Both the position numbers and the translations under genes were made by a program. The notes under the pieces were generated by a model. It searched no databases. It saw only the letters and a program-made list of their open reading frames with translations, and was not told where the DNA came from. Shown here piece by piece: positions 10,190-64,000 of a stretch of DNA of 64,000 nucleotides. The stretch is from a virus, in the IMG/VR virus record IMGVR_UViG_3300046787_000675, positions 96,706-160,705 of that record; one strand, 5' to 3'. How positions within the stretch are numbered: position 1 is the stretch's first letter; every line of letters starts with the position of its first letter.

Positions 10190-11473
10190 TTAGCAGCAGT
10201 ATTTAACTTTTGCGTCATAAGTGTTATTAGGAAGCTCTAATACATAACATACATGAATAGGGGAATCACATGCCGCTAAAGCCAAGGCTAATTCAGCAGT
10301 TAAGAAGGCATTGTTTATTGCGTCCTCAAAAGTAGGACCATTTTCTGTTACTTCCGTACTTGTTCCTCCAGGAGGGCATATATCCACATCAGGAGGACAT
10401 ATATTATTACAAGGTGCAAGTCCTAGAACAGCAGCTGCGTCATCACACGTATTTCCTTTACCGTCTGGAGCTACAGGTGCGGCAAAACCGTCAACTAAAA
10501 CAACATTACCTTGGTAATCGGTATTAATAACCAATACCTCCGGATCATCCGGCGGAACCTCATAATTATTACCTGCAAATGGACCTGGACGAGGAGGTAA
10601 GACATCCCATTGAATATCCGATAATTTACCGTCGTGTATAACTAGATTCGCCCAGTAAACTTTTAGTGTTCCTGCCTCGGTACATCCTATATCCACAACT
10701 ACCGGGATAAGACCTAAAGGTTCTTTCTTGGCTCCGGCTGTGTCTGGTGCCGCGTCATGCGTATCTATTCGTGGCCATAAAGGAAACTCCAGATAACGCA
10801 TCGTATATTTACCTGGTTCATTAGGATCCGGAAGACAACACCATCTAGGGTATCCGGATTGGCGTTGGAAGCTCTCATCCCTATCTACTTGTCTAAGGGT
10901 GTAATCTTTTTCTGGCCTTTCTCTCCGTTGTAAGTGTAACTCGCCATTTACCACCTCCGCTATAATACTGTTCTCTTTACCATCCGGACAACAGGTATTA
11001 GGCAAAGGAGGACCGTCTGGATTTTTTTCTCGGACACTAAAAGGTAATGGTGTAACTGTTGTGGGTATATAAAACCATGGAAGAGGATCGATTGTCGGGA
11101 ATCGCGGTCTACCGGTAATTAACCGAATCATGTCTATGCCGTCCCCTTGACAGAAACACTGATCGGCATATATAAGGATGGCTTCTTTTTCCGGTGTACT
11201 TAATTTGTTCCACAGGTTAGGGTAATCCGGATCATATGACACACCGTCCAACACAGAATAATTATCATTAAAAGGAATAGTATCGATGTCGGACTGTTCT
11301 CCGAAATGATAAGGGAAACTGGCAAGATGTTCTGAACTTGGCGGGTAAACATAACATGTAGGTTTCTCAAACGGTGTTAAGATAAAACTATCGTAACATT
11401 CGTTCGTGTTCCCTACATCTCTGTATACGGCACCGTTGCCTATGTTAAAAGGTGACCCATATAATCTGCGCAC
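10190..11473 (-). CDS. Pro/Cys-rich structural protein
   Basis: 427-aa ORF with GTG start and many Cys pairs, in the baseplate/fibre region. Confidence 0.65.
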   Translation of the reverse strand: MRRLYGSPFNIGNGAVYRDVGNTNECYDSFILTPFEKPTCYVYPPSSEHLASFPYHFGEQSDIDTIPFNDNYSVLDGVSYDPDYPNLWNKLSTPEKEAILIYADQCFCQGDGIDMIRLITGRPRFPTIDPLPWFYIPTTVTPLPFSVREKNPDGPPLPNTCCPDGKENSIIAEVVNGELHLQRRERPEKDYTLRQVDRDESFQRQSGYPRWCCLPDPNEPGKYTMRYLEFPLWPRIDTHDAAPDTAGAKKEPLGLIPVVVDIGCTEAGTLKVYWANLVIHDGKLSDIQWDVLPPRPGPFAGNNYEVPPDDPEVLVINTDYQGNVVLVDGFAAPVAPDGKGNTCDDAAAVLGLAPCNNICPPDVDICPPGGTSTEVTENGPTFEDAINNAFLTAELALALAACDSPIHVCYVLELPNNTYDAKVKYCC

Positions 11474-47454: not shown

Positions 47455-48423
47455 TTACGCAGACCAGGCACTGAGTGAACCGGTATGGTCAACACGGGCT
47501 ACAGCTCCACTATTTTTGATAGTAGATCCGAGCATTTCGTAGGCGAACATCTCAAACAAGAAGTTTTCTACTTTTGTAGAGACAGTTACGTCTTCAAAAG
47601 TACAGAAGTCACCGATGAAGTTAGGAGCGGCGAAGTGATAGATACTATTATTAGCGACGAGGTCTTTCTTAATAGTAATATACCATTGCGTACCCATAAC
47701 GTTTCTTTCGCTGAAACCGTTGAGGAACATTTCTTGAGCGAGGTCACCGCCTAACTCAATACGGTCAAGAGCAACGATGTCGTGGATGGTTACGTTGTTA
47801 ACCAAACAAACAGCATCATTGAGTGAGCGATTGGTAGAAGGCAAACCTTTACAACCGTGTGCCAAAGAAGCGCGACTGATAGGACCTGCAGTTACATATC
47901 CTGCAGCACCTACTTCGAGAACGCGTGGGTTAGTGTTAGTAACATCGTTAAGTGGTCCGATGATAGTTTCGACAACAGCCATGAACTTACGGTCTTCTTC
48001 AGCAAGAATGTCTTTCAACATCAAGTCGTTGAAGATTTGTTTGATGTCCATATCGTAGGTCAACAAGTTGACAAAGTCACCGGTGAAACGGTGAGAAGCA
48101 ATCCGGTCGAACATAATCCGATATCTTGGAGCATCAATGTAATGGTTCATAGGAACGGTACCGAATGGGATAGTATACGCAGGCGGAGTGTTTGGCTCTA
48201 CGTCTCGTACAATTACCGGTCTTACGGTATCTGCCTGACGGTCGAAGTCAGACACAGTTACAGATTTAGGTGGAATAATACGACGTGTGAAGCCGTCTTC
48301 TCTTGCTCTTAACTGTAGGAAGCTACTGGCAGAATCCATTGCTTCTTTCTGAAGTGAGCTATCGTTTGAGCGCATGCTGTTAATGAATGCTTCATTGTTA
48401 GCTTTGATTACTGGGTCAATCAT
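47455..48423 (-). CDS. major capsid protein (HK97-type fold inferred)
   Basis: 322 aa; synteny protease-scaffold-decoration-MCP; REDGFTRRIIPP, AEEDRKFM and YEMLGSTIKN..AVARV patterns; strong RBS, high-expression codon usage, own terminator. Confidence 0.8.
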   Translation of the reverse strand: MIDPVIKANNEAFINSMRSNDSSLQKEAMDSASSFLQLRAREDGFTRRIIPPKSVTVSDFDRQADTVRPVIVRDVEPNTPPAYTIPFGTVPMNHYIDAPRYRIMFDRIASHRFTGDFVNLLTYDMDIKQIFNDLMLKDILAEEDRKFMAVVETIIGPLNDVTNTNPRVLEVGAAGYVTAGPISRASLAHGCKGLPSTNRSLNDAVCLVNNVTIHDIVALDRIELGGDLAQEMFLNGFSERNVMGTQWYITIKKDLVANNSIYHFAAPNFIGDFCTFEDVTVSTKVENFLFEMFAYEMLGSTIKNSGAVARVDHTGSLSAWSA

Positions 48424-48445
48424 ATGAAATAATCTCCTTTATTGA

Positions 48446-48991
48446 TTATACTCTAGCAGGGTTGTAACACGGCCAGAAGTTAATTACTTGTTGTCCATAT
48501 ACGCTTGAGTAAACAGACTTAGCAACTACCCCTACACAGTTAGTATCAAGAGGGATTTTACCCGAACTTAAAGATACTGGGGCGAGGAGACCTTCTTGCT
48601 CTGCACCGGCATTAAGAATTTCAGCACCGGTTAACGGGGCGTTGATCGCGAAGTCAGCCGCATCGAAATTCTCTAAATCGACAGCCGTAGTCATGAGTTC
48701 ATAACCGCCTGAAGCTACGAATGCACTGTTTACACCGCCGGATGTATTACCAGTATCGGAAGCAGCATCATAGTCAGTTGAGTCATTGATTGCAAACATA
48801 GGCATAGCAACAAGAGATGAATTTAAACCTTGACGGAATAAACCGGCAGAAGTTAATGTAATCAGTGCGCCTCTACGGAAATCAGCATCATTTGCTCTTC
48901 CCGCATAGAATTGAAGGTCGTGCATACCGTCTGAGCCTGATACGGCTGTCAAGAGGTATGTATAGTTTTGACCTGGGTTAAGTTGAAACAT
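48446..48991 (-). CDS. putative head decoration/cement protein
   Basis: 181 aa directly upstream of MCP; GALITL...NAPLT...VGVV beta-tulip-like pattern. Confidence 0.6.
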   Translation of the reverse strand: MFQLNPGQNYTYLLTAVSGSDGMHDLQFYAGRANDADFRRGALITLTSAGLFRQGLNSSLVAMPMFAINDSTDYDAASDTGNTSGGVNSAFVASGGYELMTTAVDLENFDAADFAINAPLTGAEILNAGAEQEGLLAPVSLSSGKIPLDTNCVGVVAKSVYSSVYGQQVINFWPCYNPARV

Positions 48992-49002
48992 ATATGTTCT
49001 CC

Positions 49003-49455
49003 TTAGTTATTTAATTTTTGTCTTAGACGAGCCATTGACTGATCCCAATTGACATCTGAATCCTTACTACCCTGTACTGTAGCAGTAGTGGGGGATGCTT
49101 GTTTGTCTATAGAACCTAAGCTAGGCAAGCCTTTCTTATTTACTGTATTCTCTGCAAGTTTTTCCAAGAAGGTCCCTAAGTACGCGTTATCTGTCATAGC
49201 GGCAGATATAAACCCTTTACGGTTAGCTTCTTTGAGAAAACCAGCTTCGATTACAGCATTTGCTAATTTGTCCGCACTGTCAGCGTTTATTCCTGACTTT
49301 ACGACAACCTGTTGGGCAGCTTCTTTCTGATTGAAAGCACCTTCTACCTGTGTTAAAAGATTTGTTAATCTGTTAATTTGGTTTGCTTGCTTTTCTATCA
49401 AAGCTTGAGAGGCTTGAATATACTGAGCCACTTCGTGCTGTACTCTTATATCCAT
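49003..49455 (-). CDS. scaffold-associated head protein
   Basis: Coiled coil with six KxA motifs in 150 aa. Confidence 0.6.
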   Translation of the reverse strand: MDIRVQHEVAQYIQASQALIEKQANQINRLTNLLTQVEGAFNQKEAAQQVVVKSGINADSADKLANAVIEAGFLKEANRKGFISAAMTDNAYLGTFLEKLAENTVNKKGLPSLGSIDKQASPTTATVQGSKDSDVNWDQSMARLRQKLNN

Positions 49456-49474
49456 AATTAATTCGCCTCCTTTA

Positions 49475-50407
49475 TTACGATAAACTATTTTTTAAAATAG
49501 ATTTTATCGCATTGACATTGTTACGTTTTTGTTCAGCTGCTGTTTTTTGAACTTCACCTTCTGCTGGAGCGCTAACGCCTTCTGCGTTTATCTCACTCAA
49601 GGCTTGGGCAAGATCTTCTTCGGTAGCTCCTTGGGCTTTTAATTCCTCAATAATAGCTACTGCTTCTTGGAGGTCTTCAGGCGTAGCACCTGATTCTGCC
49701 AAAATATTGGAGATCTGTTCTAATTCTGCTTCGCTTGGAGCTCCACCTTCAGCAGGAGCGGCTGCGGCTTCCGGTGGTAAAGCTTCTGGAGCTGCAGCTT
49801 CTGGAGGTAAAGCATCAACAGGTAAAATATCTTCTGGAGTTTCCATAGCAATCTTATCTAAAAGATTACCGATACCGCCGGCTTGTTGGATTAGAGGGGC
49901 GAGGCTGGCATTCTTTTGAAAACCTTCTTCATCTCTCTGTCTGGCAGCGAAACCTGCTAAAAAAGATAAAGCATAGTCATTACCTTTTTGGATAGCTACT
50001 TTTTCAAGTTCGGTGTATTGTTTTTCTACACTGGCTTGTTTTTGCATACCCATTAAAGTATTAACCAGGCTGTTTGCTACTTTAGTGATTCTTGCTTGTT
50101 CTGCTGCTGTTTTTTGCACTTGGCCAATTTCCTCTTTAACAATATTACCGATGTTGCCTTGTGTAACTTTATCATCGACATATAATGTTTTTGTGCCTTG
50201 ATCGTCTGTAGGTTTGTCACCCATAGATCTGTTATTATCTTTCTCATCTTCGATAGTTGAGCCAGACGCTTTAGCTGCTTTAGATTGTTCAAGACCGAGA
50301 TTGGTCTGTTTATCTTTGGCAACAAATGAAGTATCCATAGCTACTTTTTCACGAAATGGGCGCAGATACTGTTCAATCGCATCCATAGTATCTAATTGAT
50401 TTGACAT
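49475..50407 (-). CDS. putative prohead scaffold/core protein
   Basis: Acidic Ala/Glu/Gln-rich with about 8 KxA motifs; downstream of protease. Confidence 0.65.
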   Translation of the reverse strand: MSNQLDTMDAIEQYLRPFREKVAMDTSFVAKDKQTNLGLEQSKAAKASGSTIEDEKDNNRSMGDKPTDDQGTKTLYVDDKVTQGNIGNIVKEEIGQVQKTAAEQARITKVANSLVNTLMGMQKQASVEKQYTELEKVAIQKGNDYALSFLAGFAARQRDEEGFQKNASLAPLIQQAGGIGNLLDKIAMETPEDILPVDALPPEAAAPEALPPEAAAAPAEGGAPSEAELEQISNILAESGATPEDLQEAVAIIEELKAQGATEEDLAQALSEINAEGVSAPAEGEVQKTAAEQKRNNVNAIKSILKNSLS

Positions 50408-50505
50408 TGTGTTCTACCTTTAATTTTTAGAACTAACTAGTTCTAGATTAATAATTTTAGATAACCTTATCGATTATCTAGTGCACTATTGCTAACCAGC
50501 TTATA

Positions 50506-53100
50506 CTAGTGCATATTATACATAGTTACTAACTTAGCATCTTTATCCCTGCCGCTGAGGTATGATAACTCATACTTAGCATATTCTTTTGCAAGATATA
50601 CGCTTTCGGCGGTTGGCTGTGTTAGTTTCTTGCAGTTTGCTTCTTTAGATATAGGGTTAACAACGATTATTTTTAATACTCGTTTATTTAATGGTCCTTC
50701 ATCCATAGAATGACTATCTACAAGATTACCTATTATATCATCTAGACCAGACCAATGACCTGTTTCTTTTGGTGTATATGATCCGTCTTCTACTGCCTCA
50801 GTTCCTTCCTCTTTTAATTTCTGAAAGATACTAGGCAAAGCGCTTGTTATATCCTCAAGACCCTCGATGTTTCCTTTAGGTTTCTTGAGAACTATCCTTA
50901 TAAACGATTTAGGAGGTAGTAATATACCTTTCTTATTACATCTGCTTATAACATCGTCTAACGGATAATTGCAAAGCTTACACATAGACTCTTCGTCTAA
51001 TTCGTCCGAAAAGCTATTTGATAGTAACTTAACATCACTATCTGCGTGTTCAAGCTGTATTCGTTTTTCCATATCAGCTAATTTCTCTAATAAGCGTGCT
51101 CTTCTGCCCACTTCTTCCCCTGCCAGCTTATCAATTAAGCTATGCGGGATATATAAACCTTTATTAATTTCTCTGTCAATTGCGAATACGTCTTCGCTTT
51201 TATAATTCTCTGAAGCTACTTTAGATAGACCAAATGCTATTCTATCCGCAGGTTTATCTACACAAGATATGTCGTGGAAGTGAGGCTGGTCATTATACAT
51301 AAATATTTGACTGCCTTCTTTAGTAAGTTCCAATTTATTATATTTTACATGGTTACAATAATCTGATAATACTTTTGCTTTATTGCCGCATACAGAACAG
51401 TTATGTACTGCTACTCCATTGGCTATGTAGGATTCGTCACCCTCTACAGACATATTATACACAACTTCATCTACAGCTTCAATCTCCCTTATAGACACAA
51501 CAGGTGTATATACATAATCACCTACCAACCTAGTCTTGGTAGCGGTTGCCCTAGTAGACCAGGCTGTAATGTATCCTGCTTTTACGGATAGATCTTTAAG
51601 CTCTTCTAAAAGGTCCCTCGACAGACAAACTACAAAAATATTTCCCGAGCTACTATAGTCCGAATTATAATAAGGTTGTCTATTTACAGATATACCGAAC
51701 CCTGCTGACGCAGCTTGTCTTGTTAAAGTATGTGCTAAATTTCTAGATGTTACTGTTATTCGTCCGTACTGTTTATCTACATCTACATGTCCGTCGGAGT
51801 CTAACATACCTGCTACAAAATTTAGTGCTTGTTTAGGTGGAAGAACGCCTGTTAATGTTTTATATAAGCTATATTCCTTACAATATTTTCGACAAAGAGT
51901 AGCTAATCTCTGATCATACATAGATAATTTTACAGCTCCTTTATCATCATATTTACGGCATTCTTTACCTGTTATTGCATATAAAGTAGACGCAACTCTA
52001 TCTATTATAGCTGGGTGTTTTAGGTCTAATGTAAAACTAACCCCCATATCTTTAATAGGATCTTTATCCTTATTCTTCCCTCCTCGCTGCTTAATGAGGT
52101 GCCCATCTCCGGCATACATTCCTAATATATACGCTTCATCCTCAGATATATCAGTAATATCAGCCTTAGCAACAGGGTATACTAGGCAATCTCCTATTCT
52201 TAGATCCTGCGCAGCTATCCACTCTGGAACAGCTATATACTTAGAACATACAGCACATATCAAACTTCCATCTTTAGGAACGCATTTACGTTTACCTGTC
52301 GCGGTACTTCCTTGACATACTGTTAATTTATCTCTGGGGACTACTAAGTAAGGGTGGTTACCTGTAACGTAAGACTCTTCTGAGATATCCCCTGAGGATA
52401 TAATACTATACATAGCTCCTGAGTAAATATTACGCATGGTTGTTAAAACCTTCTTCCATGCCCCGGTATGTGTACGGACATTGTCTCCTTGTTCTATGTC
52501 TTCTATATTTTTTAATCCATGTTCTGTTTCTATAGAAGTACCTTTAGTAAAACACACGTCGTAAGGTAAACCGGCACCCATACTCCAGAAGACATTGCCT
52601 TTGTCCGATGCAAGTTTATTTAACTCGTCTGACCATAGTTCTTCCGGGAGTTTAACAATTAGCTCACCTCTATCCATTTTATCGTTATATGCTTCCAGAA
52701 CAACTTCCCCAAGAGGTTTACCATTCTTTCTACCGTTTACATGGTTTCTGTAAGGTTTAGCGTACTTTAAGAAAGTGTTATGATACTCTTTTAAACCGCC
52801 TCCCAGGAGCATGCTTTTCGGACCTTTAGGTTCTTCAAATTCAACCCGGCGTGCTTCTTTATTAAAGTAGTCCGCGTTGTTATTAGCTCCGTATCTCTCT
52901 CCGGATCCTGTAGTAATTAAATGTACAAAACCAAAACCTTTCTCCGGCTTTATATCTGCTGCTTTAAACAGGAAATAGTCGTCGGAGGCGATCTTCTGCA
53001 GCTCGTGTCTATCAAGTCCTTTAGCGAAACTACCGATAAGATGAGAAGTCTTGCAGATATCCTTAAAAGTCTGAGAAGGTTGTATGTACTTATTTAGCAT
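50506..53100 (-). CDS. prohead maturation protease with intein
   Basis: NNNADYF, YRNH.N, VFWSMGAGLPYDV|CSVCG..CNH and FHDISCVDKPADRIA motifs typical of large-phage prohead proteases; position upstream of scaffold/MCP. Confidence 0.75.
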   Translation of the reverse strand: MLNKYIQPSQTFKDICKTSHLIGSFAKGLDRHELQKIASDDYFLFKAADIKPEKGFGFVHLITTGSGERYGANNNADYFNKEARRVEFEEPKGPKSMLLGGGLKEYHNTFLKYAKPYRNHVNGRKNGKPLGEVVLEAYNDKMDRGELIVKLPEELWSDELNKLASDKGNVFWSMGAGLPYDVCFTKGTSIETEHGLKNIEDIEQGDNVRTHTGAWKKVLTTMRNIYSGAMYSIISSGDISEESYVTGNHPYLVVPRDKLTVCQGSTATGKRKCVPKDGSLICAVCSKYIAVPEWIAAQDLRIGDCLVYPVAKADITDISEDEAYILGMYAGDGHLIKQRGGKNKDKDPIKDMGVSFTLDLKHPAIIDRVASTLYAITGKECRKYDDKGAVKLSMYDQRLATLCRKYCKEYSLYKTLTGVLPPKQALNFVAGMLDSDGHVDVDKQYGRITVTSRNLAHTLTRQAASAGFGISVNRQPYYNSDYSSSGNIFVVCLSRDLLEELKDLSVKAGYITAWSTRATATKTRLVGDYVYTPVVSIREIEAVDEVVYNMSVEGDESYIANGVAVHNCSVCGNKAKVLSDYCNHVKYNKLELTKEGSQIFMYNDQPHFHDISCVDKPADRIAFGLSKVASENYKSEDVFAIDREINKGLYIPHSLIDKLAGEEVGRRARLLEKLADMEKRIQLEHADSDVKLLSNSFSDELDEESMCKLCNYPLDDVISRCNKKGILLPPKSFIRIVLKKPKGNIEGLEDITSALPSIFQKLKEEGTEAVEDGSYTPKETGHWSGLDDIIGNLVDSHSMDEGPLNKRVLKIIVVNPISKEANCKKLTQPTAESVYLAKEYAKYELSYLSGRDKDAKLVTMYNMH
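51400..52554 (-). mobile_element. intein with LAGLIDADG homing endonuclease (385 aa) in protease
   Basis: CFTKGTSIET start; TGNHPY block B; ILGMYAGDG and FVAGMLDSDG; VYNMSVEGDESYIANGVAVHN|C end. Confidence 0.92.
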
Positions 53101-54334
53101 CGTCCTTACCTTTATTTTTGGTATCTTCAGCTACAGGTTTTTTATCTTCTTTGGCAGGTTGTCGCGAATCTGCCAGATCTTTTTCAACCTTATAAGCTTG
53201 ACCGATCTCATATAAATCTTTACGACCGTTAGTCTCTAGTTGTTGTAACATTAGAGATGATGCTGCAGCCGGGCTATTTGCCAATAATACTGGATGACTG
53301 TCAGCTAAGGCATTCCACGCCCCTACTATTTGACTATGTGTATAGTTTTTAAAGTTAGGATTGTCGTTTATAATGCTATAGAGCGTTCTTTTAGCTTCCA
53401 GAGCTTTTATCTTATTATAATAACTTGGATCCAATGCATCTCCGACAGTTTTTTCTTTGGTAGGTTGTACAAATAAAGCTTTCTCTTTATTGTCACCGAC
53501 ACTATTGGCCAAGGAAGCGGTTAAAAATCTTTGGAGGTTATCCGATACAAAGTTAGCTTCTTTTTGAAGTTGTTCGTGCCATTGCTCTGCCCGCGCTAAT
53601 TTATGCGCTGATTCATAAGCTCTCTGCATAGAAAGAAAAGGCTCTTCTGCAGGAGGGAAATAACCGGAAGCAGTTTTCTGAAGGCATTCATCTGCAATAG
53701 GGACATTCAGCCTGGCGGATACAATCTTCATCATTTTAGCTCCTACCTCCGGATAAATGTTTACAGCCTTACGAGCTGTTTTTTCCAGGGTTTTAGGAAG
53801 CATATAACTACAGGTGTCGCAAATCTTATCTATAGCTTTCATAAAATCATATTTGTGTTTATTGAGCTCAAATTTAGCTACCTTTTCCATATTACCGAAA
53901 AAGTCTGCTTGTTGAGTTAAAGCCCTGGTATAGGAGCTTGCGCTAAGTTCTGGATCCTTACGGTAGACTTCTTTAGTCTTAGCCTCTTTAAATAAAGGAC
54001 TGAGTAGATCTACTGTATTGAGGTTAGGAGGTAACGAAAAAGACCTTTTTGCCTCTTTCTGTTTTTCTTCGTAGATATTAGATACTATGACAGATGTATC
54101 TGCCAAGTCGAAAGGATGATGCCGTGTATCGGCACTTGCCTCTTTCATAATATGTACTGCTTTAGCTTTATTGAATCCTTCGACCATTCTAGCTATAAAA
54201 TTAGGTGTGTAGTTTTCGCGACGTGCAACTTTCTCTAGTGCCTCATTAGGCGTATCTCCCTGTTTAGTAAAGGCTATAGCATCTGTAACGGCACTGATAA
54301 GTTTATTCTGTTCTGTTGGACTGAGTGTTTTCAT
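53090..54334 (-). CDS. putative head core protein
   Basis: 414 aa, helical, about 9 KxA motifs, overlaps the protease start. Confidence 0.6.
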   Translation of the reverse strand: MKTLSPTEQNKLISAVTDAIAFTKQGDTPNEALEKVARRENYTPNFIARMVEGFNKAKAVHIMKEASADTRHHPFDLADTSVIVSNIYEEKQKEAKRSFSLPPNLNTVDLLSPLFKEAKTKEVYRKDPELSASSYTRALTQQADFFGNMEKVAKFELNKHKYDFMKAIDKICDTCSYMLPKTLEKTARKAVNIYPEVGAKMMKIVSARLNVPIADECLQKTASGYFPPAEEPFLSMQRAYESAHKLARAEQWHEQLQKEANFVSDNLQRFLTASLANSVGDNKEKALFVQPTKEKTVGDALDPSYYNKIKALEAKRTLYSIINDNPNFKNYTHSQIVGAWNALADSHPVLLANSPAAASSLMLQQLETNGRKDLYEIGQAYKVEKDLADSRQPAKEDKKPVAEDTKNKGKDDAK

Positions 54335-54343
54335 TTTTATTTC

Positions 54344-56443
54344 CTATTCGGTATGTGCTGTTGCAATATCTGTAGATAGATTACCCAGTGTATTTTCTGC
54401 TTGATCCGGGTGGAATGTTGTTTTTTCTTTGAGGAAAATAACAAGGTCGCCTGTTGCTAAGAATACTTCTTTAAGATGAGAATGTAATTCTTTCATCTTG
54501 TCCTTTCCATGTCTATCCTCAAAGGCATCGTTATGCCAGTAGTACAGAAACAATAGTCGTCCTAGTGCATCCAGACCTTTAATCAAGGCGGAAGTATAAT
54601 CTTTACGTAGTTCCGAAATATCTGCTTTATCGACTAATTGTTTTATAACAGATACATCGAGTACTTCTTTTATACCTGACCCTGCGGCTTCCTGTGCTTT
54701 ATTAATAGCTTCCTGTGGTAATATTGCTTTACCTTTTTTAGTTTGGATTGTCTCAACAATAGGTTGTTTTTCTTTACCTCTTGGCCCACCCATGAAAGGT
54801 TTAAAAGAAGAATCTCGGTATGAGTTCAGATTAAAGGCAGCGGATTCTTTATATAAATATCTTTTCTTATGTCCCGGCGAGCTATGTGCTTCTTTTAGCA
54901 TCCGGATAACATCTTGACCTTCTATCCCGTAACCTTCACATAGTATTTTTGCCATGGCTTCTTTAGGAATAAACGGTGTATTGCCGTTTGCATCCGTCAA
55001 GCTTCCGTAGTTGGCATTACTGCCCATATTTACTTCAACACAGCCTAAACCTTTAGACGTATATGCTTTGATTGAGAATAGGGAAGGCATGCCGTATTTA
55101 GGTTCGGACTTTCTATTTTGTACAAACATACGGCAATCATCCGAAGGTACATATAATTTATCTTCTTTAGCTATTAGTTTACCTTCGTCGGTAAAAACAA
55201 CTAACATTTCCTTTCTATTGGAAAGACCGTCATAAAGATTAACATAGATATTGCCGGAGAAGTCAGAAGCATAACGACTGAGATCTGCTTTAATAACATT
55301 ATGTGTGGAGTGGACGAATAACAGGCTGGTCATATCTTTGATATCGCGTATAGACCTGGCTGAAGCTTTCATTCCACCTTGTTTGTTTTCGATTTTATTC
55401 CTGTCTAATCCTGTTGTGGGTTTAGCGAATACATCTGCAGCTTTAACCCAGAAAAAGTCGTGACTGGAATCAATAGGAATAAGTGCAACATGAGAAGTTG
55501 TATTCTTACAGTGTCCGTCTGCCCCTCTATTAGGTTTAACAATAATATACTTCTCCAGTGTCCCGTCCTTTAATAATACATCATAGATACCAGGGGAAGT
55601 AGGATTTTGGAAATTTCCTGAATCAACTTCTTCGTGAAATACTTTGGTAAAATTAGTCCTATGATCTTTGATGTATATGCCGTTTTTAACGAGTAGTTTT
55701 TTCTCGTTATCGTCTAGCTCTTTAGCTTCTTTGCTTAGTTTATCCTTGATGTAGATTACTTTATTCGGTTCTACTACAGGAATAACATCTCTGTATATGA
55801 TCGCCTGTTTAGCTACTTTCTCGATATGGTCTAAGCTATGTACTTGGAATAGAGCATTTGCGAATTCTGGATCTTTAAGGAATGTATTGACAAATAATGA
55901 ACTTGCCTCTTTAGGTAATGCTTCTAATGCTCCGTCGAGAGAAGGAAGATATTGTTTCTCTACGCCTTCCCCTAATCTCTTAAACATGTTATCTACAGCT
56001 TCTTTTTCCAGGAACGAATTATTACCAAAAGAAGACGCAGCTAATTTAAATATAGAACTATCTGGAGAAAAGGTATTGGTGTTCTCAGAAGATGCTCCTA
56101 AACCGTTGTTGTTAATTTCGCTATTGGTTGCTGTAGAGCCAAGTATCTGTACTCCCTGGTCATTGATAGCTGCAATGAATGTATCTGTTGCAGGTACAAA
56201 CATATCTTTATTTTTTATGTATAGTAACTCAAATCCTTCCAGAGCACCTTTTATAAAGAATATCGGAATATATAACCAGACATTATTAACCACAAAGGCA
56301 TAAATACCTACGGCTTTTGTATCGTCGTCTGTTTTATCAATAATCTGAAATCCTACTCTATATTCTACTAGAGACGGAAGTCTTTCGTTAAGCTCCGCGT
56401 CAACTAACTGTCCAAAACGTTGCTCAAATGATATCTCTGCCAT
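54344..56443 (-). CDS. putative head core protein
   Basis: 699 aa, about 9 KxA motifs clustered at apparent domain boundaries. Confidence 0.55.
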   Translation of the reverse strand: MAEISFEQRFGQLVDAELNERLPSLVEYRVGFQIIDKTDDDTKAVGIYAFVVNNVWLYIPIFFIKGALEGFELLYIKNKDMFVPATDTFIAAINDQGVQILGSTATNSEINNNGLGASSENTNTFSPDSSIFKLAASSFGNNSFLEKEAVDNMFKRLGEGVEKQYLPSLDGALEALPKEASSLFVNTFLKDPEFANALFQVHSLDHIEKVAKQAIIYRDVIPVVEPNKVIYIKDKLSKEAKELDDNEKKLLVKNGIYIKDHRTNFTKVFHEEVDSGNFQNPTSPGIYDVLLKDGTLEKYIIVKPNRGADGHCKNTTSHVALIPIDSSHDFFWVKAADVFAKPTTGLDRNKIENKQGGMKASARSIRDIKDMTSLLFVHSTHNVIKADLSRYASDFSGNIYVNLYDGLSNRKEMLVVFTDEGKLIAKEDKLYVPSDDCRMFVQNRKSEPKYGMPSLFSIKAYTSKGLGCVEVNMGSNANYGSLTDANGNTPFIPKEAMAKILCEGYGIEGQDVIRMLKEAHSSPGHKKRYLYKESAAFNLNSYRDSSFKPFMGGPRGKEKQPIVETIQTKKGKAILPQEAINKAQEAAGSGIKEVLDVSVIKQLVDKADISELRKDYTSALIKGLDALGRLLFLYYWHNDAFEDRHGKDKMKELHSHLKEVFLATGDLVIFLKEKTTFHPDQAENTLGNLSTDIATAHTE

Positions 56444-56558: not shown

Positions 56559-59540
56559 TTATAATCGTGTAGGATCCATCAATTTACTTGCATAACCTAC
56601 ATCGTCATGTTTACTGGTTCCACCTAATCTGATATCTTCCAGTAAATTTTTCTTTAAATTGAAACCTGTTAATTTATTTTTGAAGTCTGGGTCCGTTCCC
56701 GGTATATCCATAATTCTCATCGGTGCCGGTTCGAAGCCCGGCGCAGCGTCGTGCGTTTTAATACTTTTAATCTGTTCTTCTTTTAAAAACTTTGCAACCT
56801 TAGGTGTTATCCGTGTTCCAATACTGTAATGTAATACAGGCTGCTCTAGATATTTACCTACAGCTCTATCGGGAGATAGCTCGATGGAATCTTTACGCGG
56901 TTGGTAGTTTCGCTGAATGTCGCTATATGTGACAATATCATCAATGACATGGCCGTTAGGTCCTTCGATATCTGTTATTTTTACGCGGTCAAAGAATCCC
57001 CTAGCTAAAGTTTCTACATGGCGTTGTTTAACATTTATTCCGTTGTTTTTTAATATCTGTCCAAATTTATTAACAAAATAAAGACGCGCATCTCCTATCC
57101 CTTTATACTTTGCCATCTCAGCGGGATTAGGTGTTCCGTCAGTTAACATATCTCCTTGTTCAATCTGATCGCCAACAGTAACTAATACATCCCGAGCAGG
57201 ACTAGCATAGAATGCCTCTCCGCCTACAGTTATGTACTTGCCTCCTTGAGGGGCGTCCGATATACTCTGTACTATTCCATCTTTATTAGATAATACAGAT
57301 CCTCCTCTAAAATGTTTAGGTACTTGAAGGAATTGATTGACTTCCTCGAATCCGGATAATTCATCGGAGAACTGTTTACCCCCAATAATGCCCCCTGTGT
57401 GTTTGGAGGATAACCCTGACTGAGTTAAAGGTTCAGACAATAAACGACCTGTATCAACACCTACATAGGCTCCTATTTCTGGAAAATTACCTTTATCTCG
57501 TTTTCCGGCACAGCGTCTACATATCCCGTTACCTGATTGACATGTTATTAACGATCTAACAAGTAATTTCTTATCTTGGATAGCGGGTAGATGTTTTTTT
57601 GTTATAGTTGTTCCTGCAGGTACATTCCCTACATCCTTAGCAAGCACTCGACCTATAACATCGCTGTTGTCGCCCAACATAATAATACCTTTGTCGGATG
57701 CGCCGCAATCGTCTTCGACTACTTGTACACGAGAAGAAGCTAAGGCTAATTGTTTACCTAAAAATCCTGATTTTGCTGTCATGAACTGAGTGTCAGAGTT
57801 AGATACTACCATCCCGTTAGCCAATACAAATAAATGGTCTTCGTGATCTACTTCAAGATCGTATGTAGAGCGAGTGCCTAATACTGATGTACTAACATAA
57901 TTTAATCTTGTATCTTGTGATCTCCCGTCGGATTTTACAGAATGGATTATCTCTCTGACTTTTTTACCTTTTTTTCCAATAGTAGTTAGATATTGACTTC
58001 TATACAACACCGATTGTCTATCGGAATAACTTAATACATAAGCGTCTCTAGATGCCTTTATAGTATACCCGTAAGATGATGATTCGGGTATATTTTTTTT
58101 ATCTATATGAATTATATCTGTACAATATATTCCTAGTCTAGTCTCTAGTAGATATCTAATTCCTTTGAGTAACTCTTCGGATGTAGAGTGATATCTGATA
58201 ACAGGGGTTGAAGTAATTCCACTTATTGTACTTCCGCCATCAGCTTCGAAAAATCCATTTATAAATGCACATACACTATTATTATCCCATGTCATAACTT
58301 CTGGAGGTATTACTTTTTCATATGATTTTTTACCTAAAAGACCGAAATTAGCTATCCATGCTTTAGCACTATTAGAGGAGAATTTATTTTTTCTATCTAA
58401 ATCGAGTAACACATATTCGTAGGATGGCATTTTCGATTTTCGATTACGCTCTTTATATTTTAAATACCAATTTAAAGGTTGTAATAATTCATTTAAGGCG
58501 TCGACTAACTCAATATCACTAGTAGTTAAAGTTATAGAATTTTGGACACTAAAGTGCCCATCCCCTATTAATAAACCGAGTAGAAACGCTTTAGTAGTAT
58601 CGTACGGAATCCCATTAAAATTATTTCCTTTTGATAAAGTTATACCGAAATTCTTTTTAGCAGTACCAATAGGATATTTATCTTTTTTGCGGCGAAGTAA
58701 ACTACCAGTAGTCCATTCCCCCAATACTTTATGATCTTCTGTACATTCTATATATCTATACGAGTGTGTTCTTCCTAGTCTGAATCTATATGAGTAAACT
58801 TGTTTTATTCCGTTATCGTAGGTATTGACTACTTGGGTAGGGAATGTATTCCCTTTCTTATCTGAACCTAGAACATATTCTCCTACGTTTATATCTTCAA
58901 TCGATTTCTGTGTCCCATCAGCCATGCGTACTTTAGTTCCTTTTGCGAGACAATACCCTTTTCTCGAAGAGAAAGACCCGGCAAAATACTCCATGGGTTT
59001 TGCCCCTTGAGCGTACCCATTGATACCTGGAACAGGAATTGGCCTACCTGCTTGGTCGGCTACAAGTATGTCGCCAAATAATAATTGTGTTAGCTGTACA
59101 GGAGAACCTCTAAAACCGTGCTTAATACTTTCCCCTAAAGAATTGTTTCCTTTACTGGTGCTATCAAGGACGATCTTGTTAATTACAGGCATCTCTTTAC
59201 GCATGTATTCTACAATCTCTTTGTTTTTCTGCTCGGGAGATTTCCTTCTATCCTGTTGGATGTCGACAATATTATTTTTTATAACCTCGCGATATTTCTT
59301 TACTTCATCTGGCATTTTTAAATCGGATAAACGTATAGACGCCAGTCCTCCTTGTTCTGTTCCGGCTACCCTGGAAACATTCATAAGGGACTGCATTGTA
59401 TCGATATATTTGTCAGGATGTCTCTCGGCCATTGCCAGGAAAAATGTCTCTGCAGATTTCTTGTTAAAGACTCTATCCGGATCTCGTAAGTCTTCCGGAA
59501 TTATATCGTTTATCAGATATTGACCTAATGTGCGCGCCAT
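56559..59540 (-). CDS. rpoC: RNA polymerase beta' subunit, C-terminal portion, with intein
   Basis: Bridge helix SRKGY|SDTQFMTAKSGFLGKQL; EDDCG; VRSLITC..GICRRCAG Zn site; trigger loop SEPLTQSGLSSKHTGG; RHVETLAR. Confidence 0.92.
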   Translation of the reverse strand: MARTLGQYLINDIIPEDLRDPDRVFNKKSAETFFLAMAERHPDKYIDTMQSLMNVSRVAGTEQGGLASIRLSDLKMPDEVKKYREVIKNNIVDIQQDRRKSPEQKNKEIVEYMRKEMPVINKIVLDSTSKGNNSLGESIKHGFRGSPVQLTQLLFGDILVADQAGRPIPVPGINGYAQGAKPMEYFAGSFSSRKGYCLAKGTKVRMADGTQKSIEDINVGEYVLGSDKKGNTFPTQVVNTYDNGIKQVYSYRFRLGRTHSYRYIECTEDHKVLGEWTTGSLLRRKKDKYPIGTAKKNFGITLSKGNNFNGIPYDTTKAFLLGLLIGDGHFSVQNSITLTTSDIELVDALNELLQPLNWYLKYKERNRKSKMPSYEYVLLDLDRKNKFSSNSAKAWIANFGLLGKKSYEKVIPPEVMTWDNNSVCAFINGFFEADGGSTISGITSTPVIRYHSTSEELLKGIRYLLETRLGIYCTDIIHIDKKNIPESSSYGYTIKASRDAYVLSYSDRQSVLYRSQYLTTIGKKGKKVREIIHSVKSDGRSQDTRLNYVSTSVLGTRSTYDLEVDHEDHLFVLANGMVVSNSDTQFMTAKSGFLGKQLALASSRVQVVEDDCGASDKGIIMLGDNSDVIGRVLAKDVGNVPAGTTITKKHLPAIQDKKLLVRSLITCQSGNGICRRCAGKRDKGNFPEIGAYVGVDTGRLLSEPLTQSGLSSKHTGGIIGGKQFSDELSGFEEVNQFLQVPKHFRGGSVLSNKDGIVQSISDAPQGGKYITVGGEAFYASPARDVLVTVGDQIEQGDMLTDGTPNPAEMAKYKGIGDARLYFVNKFGQILKNNGINVKQRHVETLARGFFDRVKITDIEGPNGHVIDDIVTYSDIQRNYQPRKDSIELSPDRAVGKYLEQPVLHYSIGTRITPKVAKFLKEEQIKSIKTHDAAPGFEPAPMRIMDIPGTDPDFKNKLTGFNLKKNLLEDIRLGGTSKHDDVGYASKLMDPTRL
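57798..58952 (-). mobile_element. intein with LAGLIDADG homing endonuclease (385 aa) in the beta' bridge helix
   Basis: CLAKGTKVRMADG start; CTEDHKV; LLGLLIGDG and FINGFFEADG; TYDLEVDHEDHLFVLANGMVVSN|S end. Confidence 0.92.
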
Positions 59541-60188: not shown

Positions 60189-60917
60189 TTACCTCAGATT
60201 ATATAGGCGTTGTATAATTGTACCTAGCTCACTGTTATTTATTTTTTTTTGTTGGGCTAACTTTTCGACAGGAGGCGGCGCGAAAGACTCAGGCATTGCT
60301 TCCGGCATAGGAGGAGCAGACAGTTCTTCTGAAGGCATTGTAGGAACGCCTTCTGGAGCTACCATACCTAAATTTGCTTGCAGTAAGGCTACCTGTTCTG
60401 TTAAAGCATCTATCTGCATTTGCATCTCTTCAAATCTACTATCAGAAACCGGTTTATCTTTTTTAGATTTAGCACCACTGCCAATTAATTCTACCAATTC
60501 ATCTACGGTTAACTCACTAACGAGTTTAGGAGCTGTTTCTCCATCCTTGGCACCTACATTACCGATTGCATTCGGGTCAGGTCCGACAGGAGTCATTCCG
60601 CCGGCAGCAGGATCTAAAGGAGGCATACCACTTGCTTGATAAGCTGCCATTAAATCTTCTGCGGAAGGGACTCCACCGGCAGGGGGCATTGCACCCATCA
60701 TAGCAGGATCCATTGGAGGCATTCCTCCTGGGGGTATCGCGCCCATCATAGCAGGATCCATTGGAGGCATTGCACCCATCATAGCAGGATCCATTGGAGG
60801 CATTGCACCCATCATAGCAGGATCCATTGGCGGTTGGCCTGGAGGTGGTCCCGGAGGTGCATATGCTGTCTTCTGTAAGAGATCTTGTAAAGCAGCCAAG
60901 TTTAATTTTTCAGACAT
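60189..60917 (-). CDS. Pro/Met-rich low-complexity head-associated protein
   Basis: PMDPAMMGA repeats bracketed by LQKTA and VEKLA; AAGGA RBS. Confidence 0.65.
   Translation of the reverse strand: MSEKLNLAALQDLLQKTAYAPPGPPPGQPPMDPAMMGAMPPMDPAMMGAMPPMDPAMMGAIPPGGMPPMDPAMMGAMPPAGGVPSAEDLMAAYQASGMPPLDPAAGGMTPVGPDPNAIGNVGAKDGETAPKLVSELTVDELVELIGSGAKSKKDKPVSDSRFEEMQMQIDALTEQVALLQANLGMVAPEGVPTMPSEELSAPPMPEAMPESFAPPPVEKLAQQKKINNSELGTIIQRLYNLR
60685..60830. repeat. 33-bp coding tandem repeat (MPPMDPAMMGA, 4 units)
   Basis: cccatcatagcaggatccattgg occurs four times; one unit has a 12-bp insertion. Confidence 0.9.
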
Positions 60918-60929
60918 ATTATAATCCTT

Positions 60930-61565
60930 TTATTTATTATCCAATTTATATAGATAGCCTGCTATATAGGCTTCTTTGTTTACATTACTATCTTGTAAAG
61001 TAATGCTGTGCGCTTTCTTTTCCAATGTAGATTGCGAATACGTGTTCGTTTTTATAGTTTTTACAGCTTTCAAACGATTACCGTTTATAGGCGCATATCC
61101 TCCGGTCATATGTCCCAGAAGAAATATTTCCAGTTGTTTGGGTGTCTTTGTCTGAAGTTTATCCCAGCCGTCCCCTTCTTCCGATGTCGGTTTAGATACG
61201 GTATCTACCTCTGCGATAAATATATGATTATCTTCTCCCGCATATTTATTTGCCCAGCTTCCCATTGCCTTCTGCATTGAGGGAGGCCATTTCCAGACAA
61301 CCTTAGAAATTAATTTAATATTTTTTAACGTTATCCCGCATTCCTCTAATGCCTCTCTGCGAACTGCAGTTACCGGACCTTCTCCTTCGTCTATTCCTCC
61401 TCCCGGTACCTCAACATATAATCCGCCTGCAGACGATCTCTTAATACGTGCAACAATAGAGCCATCAGGCATTATAGCGAATACCTCAGCTCGTTTTCTA
61501 TAGGGGAGCGATGCCCCCTTTAGTGTTGTTAATTTTACGGTTTCATCGCGGGCGTATTTTAACAT
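60930..61565 (-). CDS. Nudix hydrolase with C-terminal tag
   Basis: Nudix box PGGGIDEGEGPVTAVRREALEECG; C-terminal LEKKA...VNKEAYIAGYLYK. Confidence 0.88.
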   Translation of the reverse strand: MLKYARDETVKLTTLKGASLPYRKRAEVFAIMPDGSIVARIKRSSAGGLYVEVPGGGIDEGEGPVTAVRREALEECGITLKNIKLISKVVWKWPPSMQKAMGSWANKYAGEDNHIFIAEVDTVSKPTSEEGDGWDKLQTKTPKQLEIFLLGHMTGGYAPINGNRLKAVKTIKTNTYSQSTLEKKAHSITLQDSNVNKEAYIAGYLYKLDNK

Positions 61566-61570
61566 ATTGT

Positions 61571-62341
61571 TTATTCTTTTTGTCTACCTTGCATTCTGTT
61601 GATAGTGTCCAGGACTTTTCCGGCTTTGCGTTTATTGTCGGATTGTTCAAGTAAACTACTTCCTAGCCCGACGGCATCGGCTCCAAGACGTGTACCTAAA
61701 CCTGCCAATGCAAGTTCTGGTTTGGCTGTTAGTGCGCCTGCAAGACTGACTAATTGACCAGCAGTTTGTAGTCCTGTTCTTGCTGTTTCGCCTGTTAAGT
61801 TTTTGAATTTTTTATCAGGATCTGTAATTGCCTCCGCTACTTCTGTATATCCGCTATCTGCCCATCTAGCTCCAGGCATTATTATACTCTTCAATGCCGA
61901 CTTTATACCTCCAGTATCAGATATTCTCTTTAGTTCCGGTGTAAGTTCTTTAATATCTGCAGTAGCCCCTTCTGCCGCTAATCTTTCAACTTTACTCCGT
62001 CTTAGTTTACGAGCAAGAAGTAAGGCAGCCAATCCACCTACTCCTCCTGAAATACCGGCAATTACAGCTCGTTTGCTATTACTCATATTTTTACTTAGAT
62101 AACCCCCTAGAGCAACTCCGCCAATAGAGCCTGTAAGCCCAGATACCATGTCGGATGCTACCGGATGGTTAGTGTTAACGGAAGTATCACCGGCTGCTTC
62201 GGCAAGTGCTTCCATTCTACCGGAATCTGTATTACCGTTAAAGAATAAGCTACGTTGGTCTTTAGATCTATCGAGGAGTTCCTGGATTGTTGGGTTAGCT
62301 TCTTTATACATGTACCCATTTAAAAATGCTGTCTTATTCAT
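61571..62341 (-). CDS. glycine-zipper protein with N-terminal tag
   Basis: MNKTAFLNGYMYKEA leader; GLTGSIGGVALGG / AGISGGVGGLAALLLA hairpin. Confidence 0.65.
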   Translation of the reverse strand: MNKTAFLNGYMYKEANPTIQELLDRSKDQRSLFFNGNTDSGRMEALAEAAGDTSVNTNHPVASDMVSGLTGSIGGVALGGYLSKNMSNSKRAVIAGISGGVGGLAALLLARKLRRSKVERLAAEGATADIKELTPELKRISDTGGIKSALKSIIMPGARWADSGYTEVAEAITDPDKKFKNLTGETARTGLQTAGQLVSLAGALTAKPELALAGLGTRLGADAVGLGSSLLEQSDNKRKAGKVLDTINRMQGRQKE

Positions 62342-62344
62342 ACT

Positions 62345-62620
62345 TTATTCCACTATTTTTTTGATTAAATTAGTTCCTGCACCTGCAGGTGTAAGGGAGG
62401 ACGGATCTACACTAATAGGGATAGCCTGTTTAGCATCTTGTTTAGTGTCTTGCTTAGAGTCTTGGGTGTTATCCGAAGAAGTAGTTACTGTTATGTCGTT
62501 AACAACCGCATTATCGCCAAATGTAATAGTAATTCTTACACCGGCAGCTGTTTCGTTTTCGAATGGGGTAGTTGCACATGCAGTCAACAAAACAATGCAG
62601 ATAATTAATAAATATCTCAT
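62345..62620 (-). CDS. small lipoprotein
   Basis: MRYLLIICIVLLTAC lipobox; AAGGAG RBS. Confidence 0.7.
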   Translation of the reverse strand: MRYLLIICIVLLTACATTPFENETAAGVRITITFGDNAVVNDITVTTSSDNTQDSKQDTKQDAKQAIPISVDPSSLTPAGAGTNLIKKIVE

Positions 62621-62621
62621 G

Positions 62622-62738
62622 TTATTTCTCCTTTTTAATTTTGTTATCTATTTTTTCTTTAACGGTTTCATTTATGTTTTTCTGAAGTTCTTTACTTTTT
62701 TCTTTAGCAAACTTTTTTAGATCGTCTTTGTCAGTCAT
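62622..62738 (-). CDS. small Lys/Glu-rich protein (38 aa)
   Basis: Manual: MTDKDDLKKFAKEKSKELQKNINETVKEKIDNKIKKEK*; AGGT RBS; fills the gap. Confidence 0.5.
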   Translation of the reverse strand: MTDKDDLKKFAKEKSKELQKNINETVKEKIDNKIKKEK

Positions 62739-62794
62739 ATATGTACCTATTTATTGTTATATTAATTGACTCTATTTATTTAAAATTTCACTAT

Positions 62795-62989
62795 TTATTT
62801 TTGAGATAAACTTAATAAAGCTTCAAGTTGGGCTTTCTTATAAGGGTCGAAATAAACACCTTGATAAAAAAGATTGTTCGGGTCAATAGAGTTCTCTAAG
62901 AAAGCCTCTGCAGTAGGCCTATAAGGAAGTACGGAAGCGTCGCGTGACTCTTTATACATATATCCATCGAGGTAGGCTTGCTTGTTCAT
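62795..62989 (-). CDS. small protein with N-terminal tag
   Basis: MNKQAYLDGYMYKES leader nearly identical to that of 61571..62341. Confidence 0.7.
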   Translation of the reverse strand: MNKQAYLDGYMYKESRDASVLPYRPTAEAFLENSIDPNNLFYQGVYFDPYKKAQLEALLSLSQK

Positions 62990-62994
62990 TTTTC

Positions 62995-64000
62995 TTATTT
63001 CTTTATGTCTAATATTTCGATCGGATCGTCTATTTTTATTAAACCTTTACTGAAGGCTTTAATGGCGTCATCCTTTGTTTTAAAAATAGTCTTCTGTTTA
63101 TTCCTGTCCGGGTCTTTGGAGGCAAAGTATAAACCTTGTAAATATTCGTTACCCAGCATGTAAGTAGGTTTATCTGTTCCGCTAAGGATAAGATTCTTAT
63201 CCGGCATCATGCGATCGATAGCTTCCTGTACTGCATCTTCCGATACAGGGACGGAGTAGGACATTGTGTTCGATAATATAGTTCCGTCGACAGACATGAA
63301 AGTTTCATATCCAGGAACAGTTAAATCGTATCCTGTTTCTACTTTTTCGGTGTTTTCAACCGATACAACGTATGTCCATGTAGTATCAGTATCCTCGACT
63401 ATTCTCTTCCAGTTATTAAATGGTTCAAGAATATCAGCAGGAGTATTACTATCGATAAGATCTAAACATTTCTGAGCCGACTGCCGACTAATATAACCTG
63501 ACTTATTACTGTCTGCGAGAGCATGATAGAGACCTGTACATTGTCTTCCGTGTTTTAATTTCGGGCTTCTATTATATTCTGCTAACTTAAGGAAAGCTGC
63601 AAGGTTTCTCTCTATAGGGACTAAATCGCTTTTTATATAAGCTGCCGCAGTATTATCAGGCGTAACCTCGAACAACTTTCTATGTTTATCTTCATGCGCA
63701 ATACAGAGTTCATCCCGTAATATAATTAGTTCTACTGCCGATATTGTAAGCATCCAACTAATATTATCACACTTAGTTGTTTTACCATAAGATATACGGG
63801 AGGACACACCTAACGACATAAGTAGCTGTTTTACCTCCTGTACCAAGCGAAGAGATATAGAAGAGAAAGATGTCATAAGTTGTGGTTTACTTTTTCCGTT
63901 AGATATAGATATACTTCCGTCAGAATCAAACAGTCCAGATAACAGCCCTATTTTAAACTCTCTAGGGGAACATAACCAAAAGGATGGTAAGTGTTTTTTA
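62995..64000 (-). CDS. rpoC: RNA polymerase beta' subunit, catalytic N-proximal portion (3' end only), with intein
   Basis: Frame is open to the window edge. After the intein, TMSYSVPVSEDAVQEA..MMPDKNLI...EYLQGLY aligns with the sequence right after NADFDGD in bacterial beta' (QMAVHVPL..EA..LM..NNIL...DVVLGLY). Confidence 0.85.
   Translation of the reverse strand, partial: KKHLPSFWLCSPREFKIGLLSGLFDSDGSISISNGKSKPQLMTSFSSISLRLVQEVKQLLMSLGVSSRISYGKTTKCDNISWMLTISAVELIILRDELCIAHEDKHRKLFEVTPDNTAAAYIKSDLVPIERNLAAFLKLAEYNRSPKLKHGRQCTGLYHALADSNKSGYISRQSAQKCLDLIDSNTPADILEPFNNWKRIVEDTDTTWTYVVSVENTEKVETGYDLTVPGYETFMSVDGTILSNTMSYSVPVSEDAVQEAIDRMMPDKNLILSGTDKPTYMLGNEYLQGLYFASKDPDRNKQKTIFKTKDDAIKAFSKGLIKIDDPIEILDIKK
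63268..64000 (-). mobile_element. intein with LAGLIDADG endonuclease (C-terminal part) adjacent to the RNAP active-site motif
   Basis: LLSGLFDSDGS; GYDLTVPGYETFMSVDGTILSN|T end. Confidence 0.88.

Follow-up and report, generated by a model that had tools for sequence, protein, structure and literature searches.

We analysed a 64-kb window of DNA from an uncultured phage, the final 64 kb of the 160,705-bp contig IMGVR_UViG_3300046787_000675 (a 160.7-kb genome), and found that proteins of different kinds encoded by this genome carry at one end a short peptide, hereafter the tag, with the consensus M-N-K-x-A-[FY]-φ-x-G-Y-φ-Y-K-x-A (15 residues; position 12 is also given as x). The tag is probably a capsid-targeting propeptide comparable to the capsid targeting sequence (CTS) of phage T4, that is, a label that would load the protein bearing it (the payload) into the phage head and would then be clipped off. 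Positions below are those of the window, unless the word genome precedes them.

The initial annotation had described three such peptides in the window, and all three lie where it placed them, on the minus strand and at the termini it named, with K-x-A sites beside them as described. It had also suggested scanning the whole proteome and related phages. The scan of the 160.7-kb genome returned nine copies in eight open reading frames (ORFs), all on the minus strand and all terminal:

62945..62989, minus strand: N-terminal tag, residues 1-15 of the 64-aa ORF at 62795-62989, ending in Y-K-E-S
62297..62341, minus strand: N-terminal tag, residues 1-15 of the 256-aa glycine-rich ORF at 61571-62341, ending in Y-K-E-A
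60945..60983, minus strand: C-terminal tag, residues 195-207 of the 211-residue Nudix ORF at 60930-61565, with V-N-K-E-A at its start and no K-x-A behind it
61011..61025, minus strand: not a tag but the neighbouring L-E-K-K-A site at Nudix residues 181-185, which lies toward the payload from the C-terminal tag (read from the sequence)
genome 8866-9333, minus strand: tagged ORF outside the window
genome 12102-12860, minus strand: tagged ORF with two tandem copies, adjacent to the portal gene
genome 21279-22028, minus strand: tagged ORF outside the window
genome 25507-26406, minus strand: tagged ORF outside the window
genome 26413-26958, minus strand: tagged ORF outside the window

By a composition-based estimate, the core pattern of the tag is expected by chance about 0.0004 times (4e-4) in this 48-kaa proteome. 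A profile built from the tag copies and run over the whole genome recovers exactly these eight ORFs at E <= 3e-6, the next best match having an E of 0.2. The copies are thus not a product of chance.

The tag is bipartite. Its core, A-[FY]-φ-x-G-Y, in which the A and the G are invariant, is joined to a K-x-[AS] site. Among the 56 distinct tagged N-termini that we collected from this genome and its relatives, K-x-[AS] stands within 12 residues behind G-Y in 48 (86%), as against 11/56 and 9/56 in the next two windows of 12 residues, and the spacing between core and site runs from 2 to 11 residues. In most of the 56 a Met is constant four residues ahead of the invariant Ala. At the C-terminal tag of the Nudix protein this arrangement is turned around, both sites (L-E-K-K-A and V-N-K-E-A) being on the payload side and none behind the tag. 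That the tag works at either terminus, as had been claimed, is borne out for the N-terminus by more than 56 copies, but at the C-terminus by two cases at one syntenic position: the Nudix protein of the window and, in the related genome G002, an unrelated 182-aa ORF that ends in a tag-like peptide and lies in the same place, directly upstream of a gene for a Pro/Met-rich protein (see below).

Tagged genes were found in about two dozen related contigs, all from uncultured phages. A strict back-translated pattern, searched against metagenome contigs, identified true N-terminal tags in five of them (L010, L017, L028, L030 and L040), with four consecutive small tagged ORFs in L010 and five tagged ORFs in L028; about 40 of the 50 metagenome matches to the pattern were chance matches in non-coding frames. 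In IMG/VR the sole match to the strict pattern, within a GIY-YIG gene, was likewise due to chance and was discarded, and a relaxed pattern located tags in at least 13 contigs, among them records 159, 165 and 185 kb long, of which two are complete. We aligned 18 tagged N-termini (alignment A1), and the profile of this alignment retrieved further tagged proteins with new payloads. Searches against cultured phages found no similarity to the DNA of the region and no match to a 209-aa tagged protein that is common in IMG/VR. The literature searched holds no description of the tag peptide strings, so that the earlier statement that no description is known applies to the sequence of the tag; the principle itself, in the form of the T4 CTS, has long been known.

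Two proteins from this set, P0002 (391 aa) and the G002 ORF in L095, have a second tag in the middle of the chain, near residues 170 and 140 respectively. Each seems to be an in-frame fusion of two cargo genes that both bore a tag, and they may be polyproteins that are cut at the tag sites. In five contigs (L055, L056, L060, L065 and L078) we also observed a family of proteins of about 59 aa that start with M-M-D-K-Q-A-F-I-D-G-Y, which equals the first half of the tag; in this family K-x-A is absent from its usual place, and no portal homologue was seen nearby.

Could the shared peptide be a functionless relic of paralogy or of recombination between genes? The flanking segments that the 64-aa ORF and the Nudix gene have in common, and the existence of fused forms with internal tags (P0002 and the G002 ORF), speak for such an origin. 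Nevertheless, third codon positions are randomised: where the residues of the tags are identical, third-position identity is 0.46, which bears out the earlier reading of the synonymous codons and indicates that the tag is kept at the peptide level, with no recent duplication of the DNA. The likeness also ends abruptly behind the tag, in the 18 N-termini of A1 directly behind K-x-A, and the tag is maintained over contigs whose GC content ranges from 38% to 59% and whose major capsid proteins (MCPs) are as little as 33% identical. We therefore regard a relic as extremely improbable.

The K-x-A half of the tag belongs to a motif that is widespread in this phage. In the whole proteome φ-x-K-[EQT]-A occurs 49 times where 12.7 occurrences are expected, an enrichment of about four-fold (z = 10.3), while four control patterns were flat, φ-x-E-x-A being among those that showed no enrichment. 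Per 1000 aa, the head module (47455-56443) contains 6.8 sites and the remainder of the proteome 0.64; outside the head module, 18 of its 29 sites begin within the first 40 residues of the protein (p = 5e-8). The head module comprises:

47455..48423, minus strand: MCP, 322 aa, homologue of the MCP gp226 of phage Arash (E 1.6e-25)
49003..50407, minus strand: two head-module proteins rich in the motif (150 aa and 310 aa; 3 sites in each)
50506..53100, minus strand: prohead protease, 864 aa, with a LAGLIDADG intein at P-Y-D-V/C; both exteins homologous to Arash gp222
53090..56443, minus strand: two head-core or scaffold-like proteins of 414 aa (5 φ-x-K-[EQT]-A sites) and 699 aa (6 sites)

The MCP has a sole φ-x-K-[EQT]-A site, L-Q-K-E-A at residues 24-28 (nt 48340-48354). 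Over seven MCPs compared, a single site is found at the same place in those of Arash (a distant relative), Vibrio phage D181 and the related genomes G001-G003, and the MCP of G004 retains K-V-A. The N-terminus of the MCP is also the best match to the tag among the untagged N-termini of this genome, scoring 3.4 compared with at least 17.6 for real tags; this likeness is not kept in the six other MCPs, and the idea that the tag mimics the MCP propeptide was dropped. The 414- and 699-aa proteins show weak homology to a 312-aa protein of D181, to Arash gp218 and to a 623-aa protein of D181, and their Arash counterparts have been detected in virions (PMC10585845). Head-module proteins of Arash and D181 contain up to nine [LIVM]-x-K-x-A-[SAG] sites each. 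From this distribution we infer that φ-x-K-x-A is the cleavage motif of head maturation in the clade. The site to which the tag is joined behaves like that motif in its enrichment, in the MCPs and in homologues of the protease.

The candidate for the enzyme that would cut this motif is the intein-split protein at 50506..53100, whose exteins also match a protein of D181 and whose N-extein has 878 homologous clusters. A K-x-A site occurs at residues 33-38, with the K present in 89 of 93 intein-less homologues, and D, H and S are invariant in the same 93. A second conserved site at about residue 241 (83/93) falls in the linker after the catalytic domain, the only stretch modelled with low confidence (predicted local distance difference test, pLDDT, below 50) in an AlphaFold2 (AF2) model of a 57%-identical homologue that has a pLDDT of 89.8. 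Comparison of folds places this model closest to the T4 protease gp21 (5jbl_A; Z 10.6, root-mean-square deviation 3.3 Å over 148 residues), followed by the protease of varicella-zoster virus (VZV; Z 5.6) and by unrelated rows at 4.8 or less; Foldseek gives a probability of 0.85 for 5jbl. The fold of this 57%-identical family member supports the claim that the phage encodes a prohead protease of the T4 gp21 fold. The likeness was found by fold comparison only, the protease profile having no match among the PDB sequences; the Pfam prohead-protease models S77 and S78 did not detect the protease in the genome, and its look-alikes by a protein language model include the S77, S78 and DUF2213 families. 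The intein is inserted just behind the strand that bears the invariant Ser, ahead of a Cys-rich insert. Many members of the family are about 860 aa long, which suggests that insertion of an intein at this point is common.

One alternative is that the tag is nothing but an extended substrate or propeptide element, such as an exosite or a double cleavage site, which carries no address, and that payloads reach the prohead by their own surfaces. The start (φ-N-K-x-A) and the end (φ-Y-K-x-A) of the tag both match the same motif, and Arash and D181 use the bare motif without any aromatic core, as this explanation would have it. We nonetheless judge it unlikely. Conservation within the tag is highest in the core A-[FY]-φ-x-G-Y, yet this core is missing from the approximately 20 internal sites of the head module, and the spacing between core and site varies, which argues that the aromatic core is under a constraint of its own. 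It is also hard to see how each of the payloads, some very small (as the 64-aa remnant) and unrelated to each other, would have a docking surface of its own.

Tagged genes lie within the block of portal, virion-type RNA polymerase and head genes. The portal gene (genome 12936-14771) encodes a protein 31-35% identical to proteins of L072, L067 and L075 and 26% identical to the annotated portal protein of Arash. In L054, L057, L066, L070, L072, L074 and L077 a tagged gene begins 15-20 nt behind the portal gene, and one is also found behind it in L017, in L075 and in the present genome (at least nine other contigs in all). Further tagged genes occupy a variable block between two parts of the RNA polymerase, around a conserved Pro/Met-rich protein:

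56559..59540, minus strand: C-terminal part of RNA polymerase β', 993 aa, with an intein, 49% identical to its G001 homologue; one boundary of the cargo block
60189..60917, minus strand: Pro/Met-rich protein, with L-Q-K-T-A at residues 14-18 followed by Y-A-P-P
62995..64000, minus strand: 3' end of a 2380-aa RNA polymerase ORF that crosses the contig junction and has no tag; the other boundary of the cargo block

Both RNA polymerase genes carry inteins. The Pro/Met-rich protein is kept between the RNA polymerase parts in four genomes (this one, G001, G002 and G003), and its N-terminus always reads φ-x-K-[ET]-A followed by (Y/A)-(A/V)-P; its homologues are encoded at the following positions:

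L105 13614-14279: Pro/Met-rich homologue
L106 6672-7472: Pro/Met-rich homologue
L107 17070-17912: Pro/Met-rich homologue

In Arash, genes beside that for the portal encode RNA polymerase subunits that rank among the most abundant proteins of the virion (PMC10585845).

The position of tagged genes next to the portal gene also bears on a second alternative, namely that the tag stays permanently in place as a docking or bundling helix, by which tagged proteins would associate among themselves or with the portal or the virion RNA polymerase to form an internal or ejection complex. Invariant A and G residues four positions apart are typical of close helix-helix packing. This spacing, the presence of a tagged gene directly behind the portal gene in at least ten contigs, the portal-adjacent protein with two tandem tags and the glycine zippers of many payloads would all suit such a helix. 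On the other hand, a cleavage-like site lies within 12 residues behind 86% of the tags, and the C-terminal tag has its site on the payload side instead; removal of the tag best explains both facts, and we hold a permanent helix to be quite unlikely.

A role unrelated to the virion was considered as well. The peptide is amphipathic and aromatic, and could serve as an in-plane membrane anchor or as a leader recognised by a modifying enzyme, for instance one of the neighbouring glycosyltransferases, whose genes are found among the tagged genes (genome 15-25 kb). Three such genes separate the portal gene from the upstream tagged genes (L001, L002):

genome 15629-16855: Mannosyl_trans3 glycosyltransferase
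genome 17249-18472: GT9-like glycosyltransferase
genome 24685-25395: GT2 glycosyltransferase

Against such a role, no modifying enzyme recurs beside the tags in the neighbourhoods examined in relatives, there is no radical-SAM gene in this genome, and the tag has no hydrophobic stretch of the signal-peptide type. The elements that do recur are the portal gene and the RNA polymerase, together with the protease family and the K-x-A code. An anchor or a modification leader appears to us very unlikely.

The payloads are varied. Several contain glycine zippers and most have no assigned family: PHROGs and Pfam searches with the payloads and most of their neighbours returned nothing or sub-threshold glycine-zipper matches, and the 256-aa payload found no homologue other than itself among 5.8 billion proteins. 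The Nudix ORF at 60930-61565 (211 aa) matches PF00293 with an E of 1.3e-10. The initial annotation had called the three tagged proteins of the window unrelated. This stands as regards portability, since the other payloads, including those of relatives in A1, are unrelated; it does not hold for the 64-aa ORF and the Nudix protein, which share Nudix-family flanks. In a relative's Nudix protein (L030 3-779), the segments on either side of the Nudix domain both match the 64-aa ORF (62795-62989), the one ahead of the domain with an E of 1e-9 and the one behind it with an E of 0.005; the ORF resembles a cargo gene of the Nudix family that has lost the Nudix domain by deletion and retained both flanks. 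Behind K-x-[AS], the 64-aa ORF and the relative's protein have the same mature start, R-D-A-S...L-P-Y-R, and the start of the Nudix protein of the window, M-L-K-Y-A-R-D, aligns with the end of the tag (apparently its last five residues) plus this same mature start.

Returning to the interpretation of the tag as a targeting propeptide, we envisage two steps, one for each half of the peptide. The first half, a short helix built on A-[FY]-φ-x-G-Y, would dock its protein to one of the components of the prohead core during assembly, the candidates being the K-x-A-rich core or scaffold proteins, the portal and the C-terminal helical domain of the protease. The second half, φ-x-K-x-[AS], would be cut by the gp21-fold prohead protease during head maturation, and the cut would free the payload inside the capsid. 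Payloads such as the glycine-zipper proteins, the Nudix hydrolase and others would then be carried in the virion beside the multisubunit RNA polymerase of virion type, and would enter the host by ejection.

Some observations weigh against this reading. Arash and D181 have the K-x-A motif, and the aromatic tag was not found in them, so the tag is not needed for head assembly in the wider clade. Nor does the virion-type RNA polymerase of this phage carry a tag, and loading can therefore occur tag-free. Three tagged genes (genome 21-27 kb) sit among glycosyltransferase genes, where a modification signal is possible. AF2 run on alignment A1 models a helix over residues 3-15 with a pLDDT of about 80, which is weak evidence for a helix because isolated peptides tend to be modelled as helical. 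Finally, the protein whose fold was compared with gp21 is a homologue and not the intein-split protease of the window itself.

The comparison with T4, already made in the initial annotation, is apt. In T4 the CTS are N-terminal propeptides, 10-20 residues long, which bring proteins into the prohead core and which gp21 then cleaves off (PMC5694885); according to Mullaney and Black 1996, as relayed in PMC5694885, they are carried by IPI, IPII, IPIII, Alt and gp24. Like the CTS, the tag is a short N-terminal peptide common to otherwise unrelated proteins, it ends in what would be the motif of a gp21-fold prohead protease, its genes are located near head genes and in variable cargo loci, and the motif recurs in the MCP propeptide and in scaffold or core proteins. 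Unlike the CTS, it is built around the aromatic core A-[FY]-φ-x-G-Y and occasionally occurs C-terminally, internally or in tandem. The two do not resemble each other in sequence, and the putative cleavage motif is φ-x-K-x-A where that of T4 is (L/I)-x-E, the tag consensus containing no Glu-based site. The phage itself, known here from sequence alone, is of a different clade, with a virion-type multisubunit RNA polymerase. Since the logic and the protease fold are common to both systems and the sequence and the motif are not, the tag is best described as a functional analogue of the T4 CTS and not as a member of its sequence family.

Also comparable are φKZ, SPN3US and 201φ2-1, whose head and ejection proteins have propeptides that are cut at (S/A/G)-x-E by gp175 or gp245 (PMC5694885, PMC10052503). 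Like the tagged phage, they are large myoviruses that possess a virion RNA polymerase together with many internal proteins; their gp21-related protease also cuts itself, their propeptides are believed to direct proteins to the prohead, and two paralogues, gp53 and gp54, have an identical 15-residue N-terminus containing cleavage motifs. Their propeptides differ from the tag in being mostly longer than 100 residues, in lacking a portable consensus on unrelated proteins and in having a Glu-based motif.

Outside the phages, encapsulin cargo-loading peptides are short and terminal (C-terminal, in some systems N-terminal) and direct diverse cargo inside a shell of the HK97 fold. They bind the shell directly, are not removed, have another consensus and involve neither protease nor portal; the tag, nearly always joined to a protease-type site, falls outside this class. 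Herpesvirus assemblin, which has the same protease fold (the VZV protease noted above), matures its substrates at (V/L)-x-A↓S sites, and herpesviruses are not known to have a portable cargo tag. The Arash and D181 motif ends in Ala plus a small residue, which may be compared with the assemblin sites and offers a lead for the position of the scissile bond.

In its broadest form, our proposal is that the tag and the φ-x-K-x-A code make up a loading system that can be read from sequence, in a large and almost unstudied clade of phages with a virion-type RNA polymerase (878 protease clusters): a helix with an A-x-x-x-G face, whether N-terminal, C-terminal or internal, would dock any payload, and a gp21-fold protease of Lys/Ala-type, not Glu-type, specificity would release it. 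We put this forward tentatively, at slightly less than an even chance. If it is true, the proteins carried into the host could be listed from sequence by means of the tag and the K-x-A sites; the predicted injected set would include a Nudix hydrolase acting beside the injected RNA polymerase and pore-forming glycine-zipper proteins, and an unrelated, widespread clade would have arrived at the load-and-clip principle of T4 by way of another peptide and another protease specificity. Cultured relatives in which the protease code is open to testing are Salmonella phage Arash and Vibrio phages D181, D148 and D69; the tag might in addition serve as a handle by which foreign proteins are loaded into capsids.

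Some further features of the contig and its neighbourhoods were recorded. The two ends of the contig (genome 1-166 and 160540-160705, the latter being 63835-64000 of the window) form a 166-bp repeat of 99.4% identity. The record, though classed as linear, is circular or terminally redundant, given this overlap and the RNA polymerase ORF that runs across the junction. Between two tagged genes of the window, a 91-aa ORF (62345-62620) has a lipoprotein-type signal (lipobox L-T-A-C), with no tag and no K-x-A. In L067, a 2H phosphoesterase gene (10912-11433; LigT or anti-CBASS Acb1-like, Pfam E 6.5e-12) lies between tagged genes upstream of the portal gene. Small glycine-zipper proteins encoded downstream of the portal gene share the C-terminal ending (I/L)-R-(L/I) or I-R, which may be a second terminal motif:

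genome 7627-7908 (L001): glycine-zipper protein with this ending
L067 4305-4583: glycine-zipper protein with this ending
L072 3506-3814 and 1924-2550: glycine-zipper proteins with this ending
L075 6879-7247: glycine-zipper protein with this ending
L066 6350-6652: glycine-zipper protein with this ending

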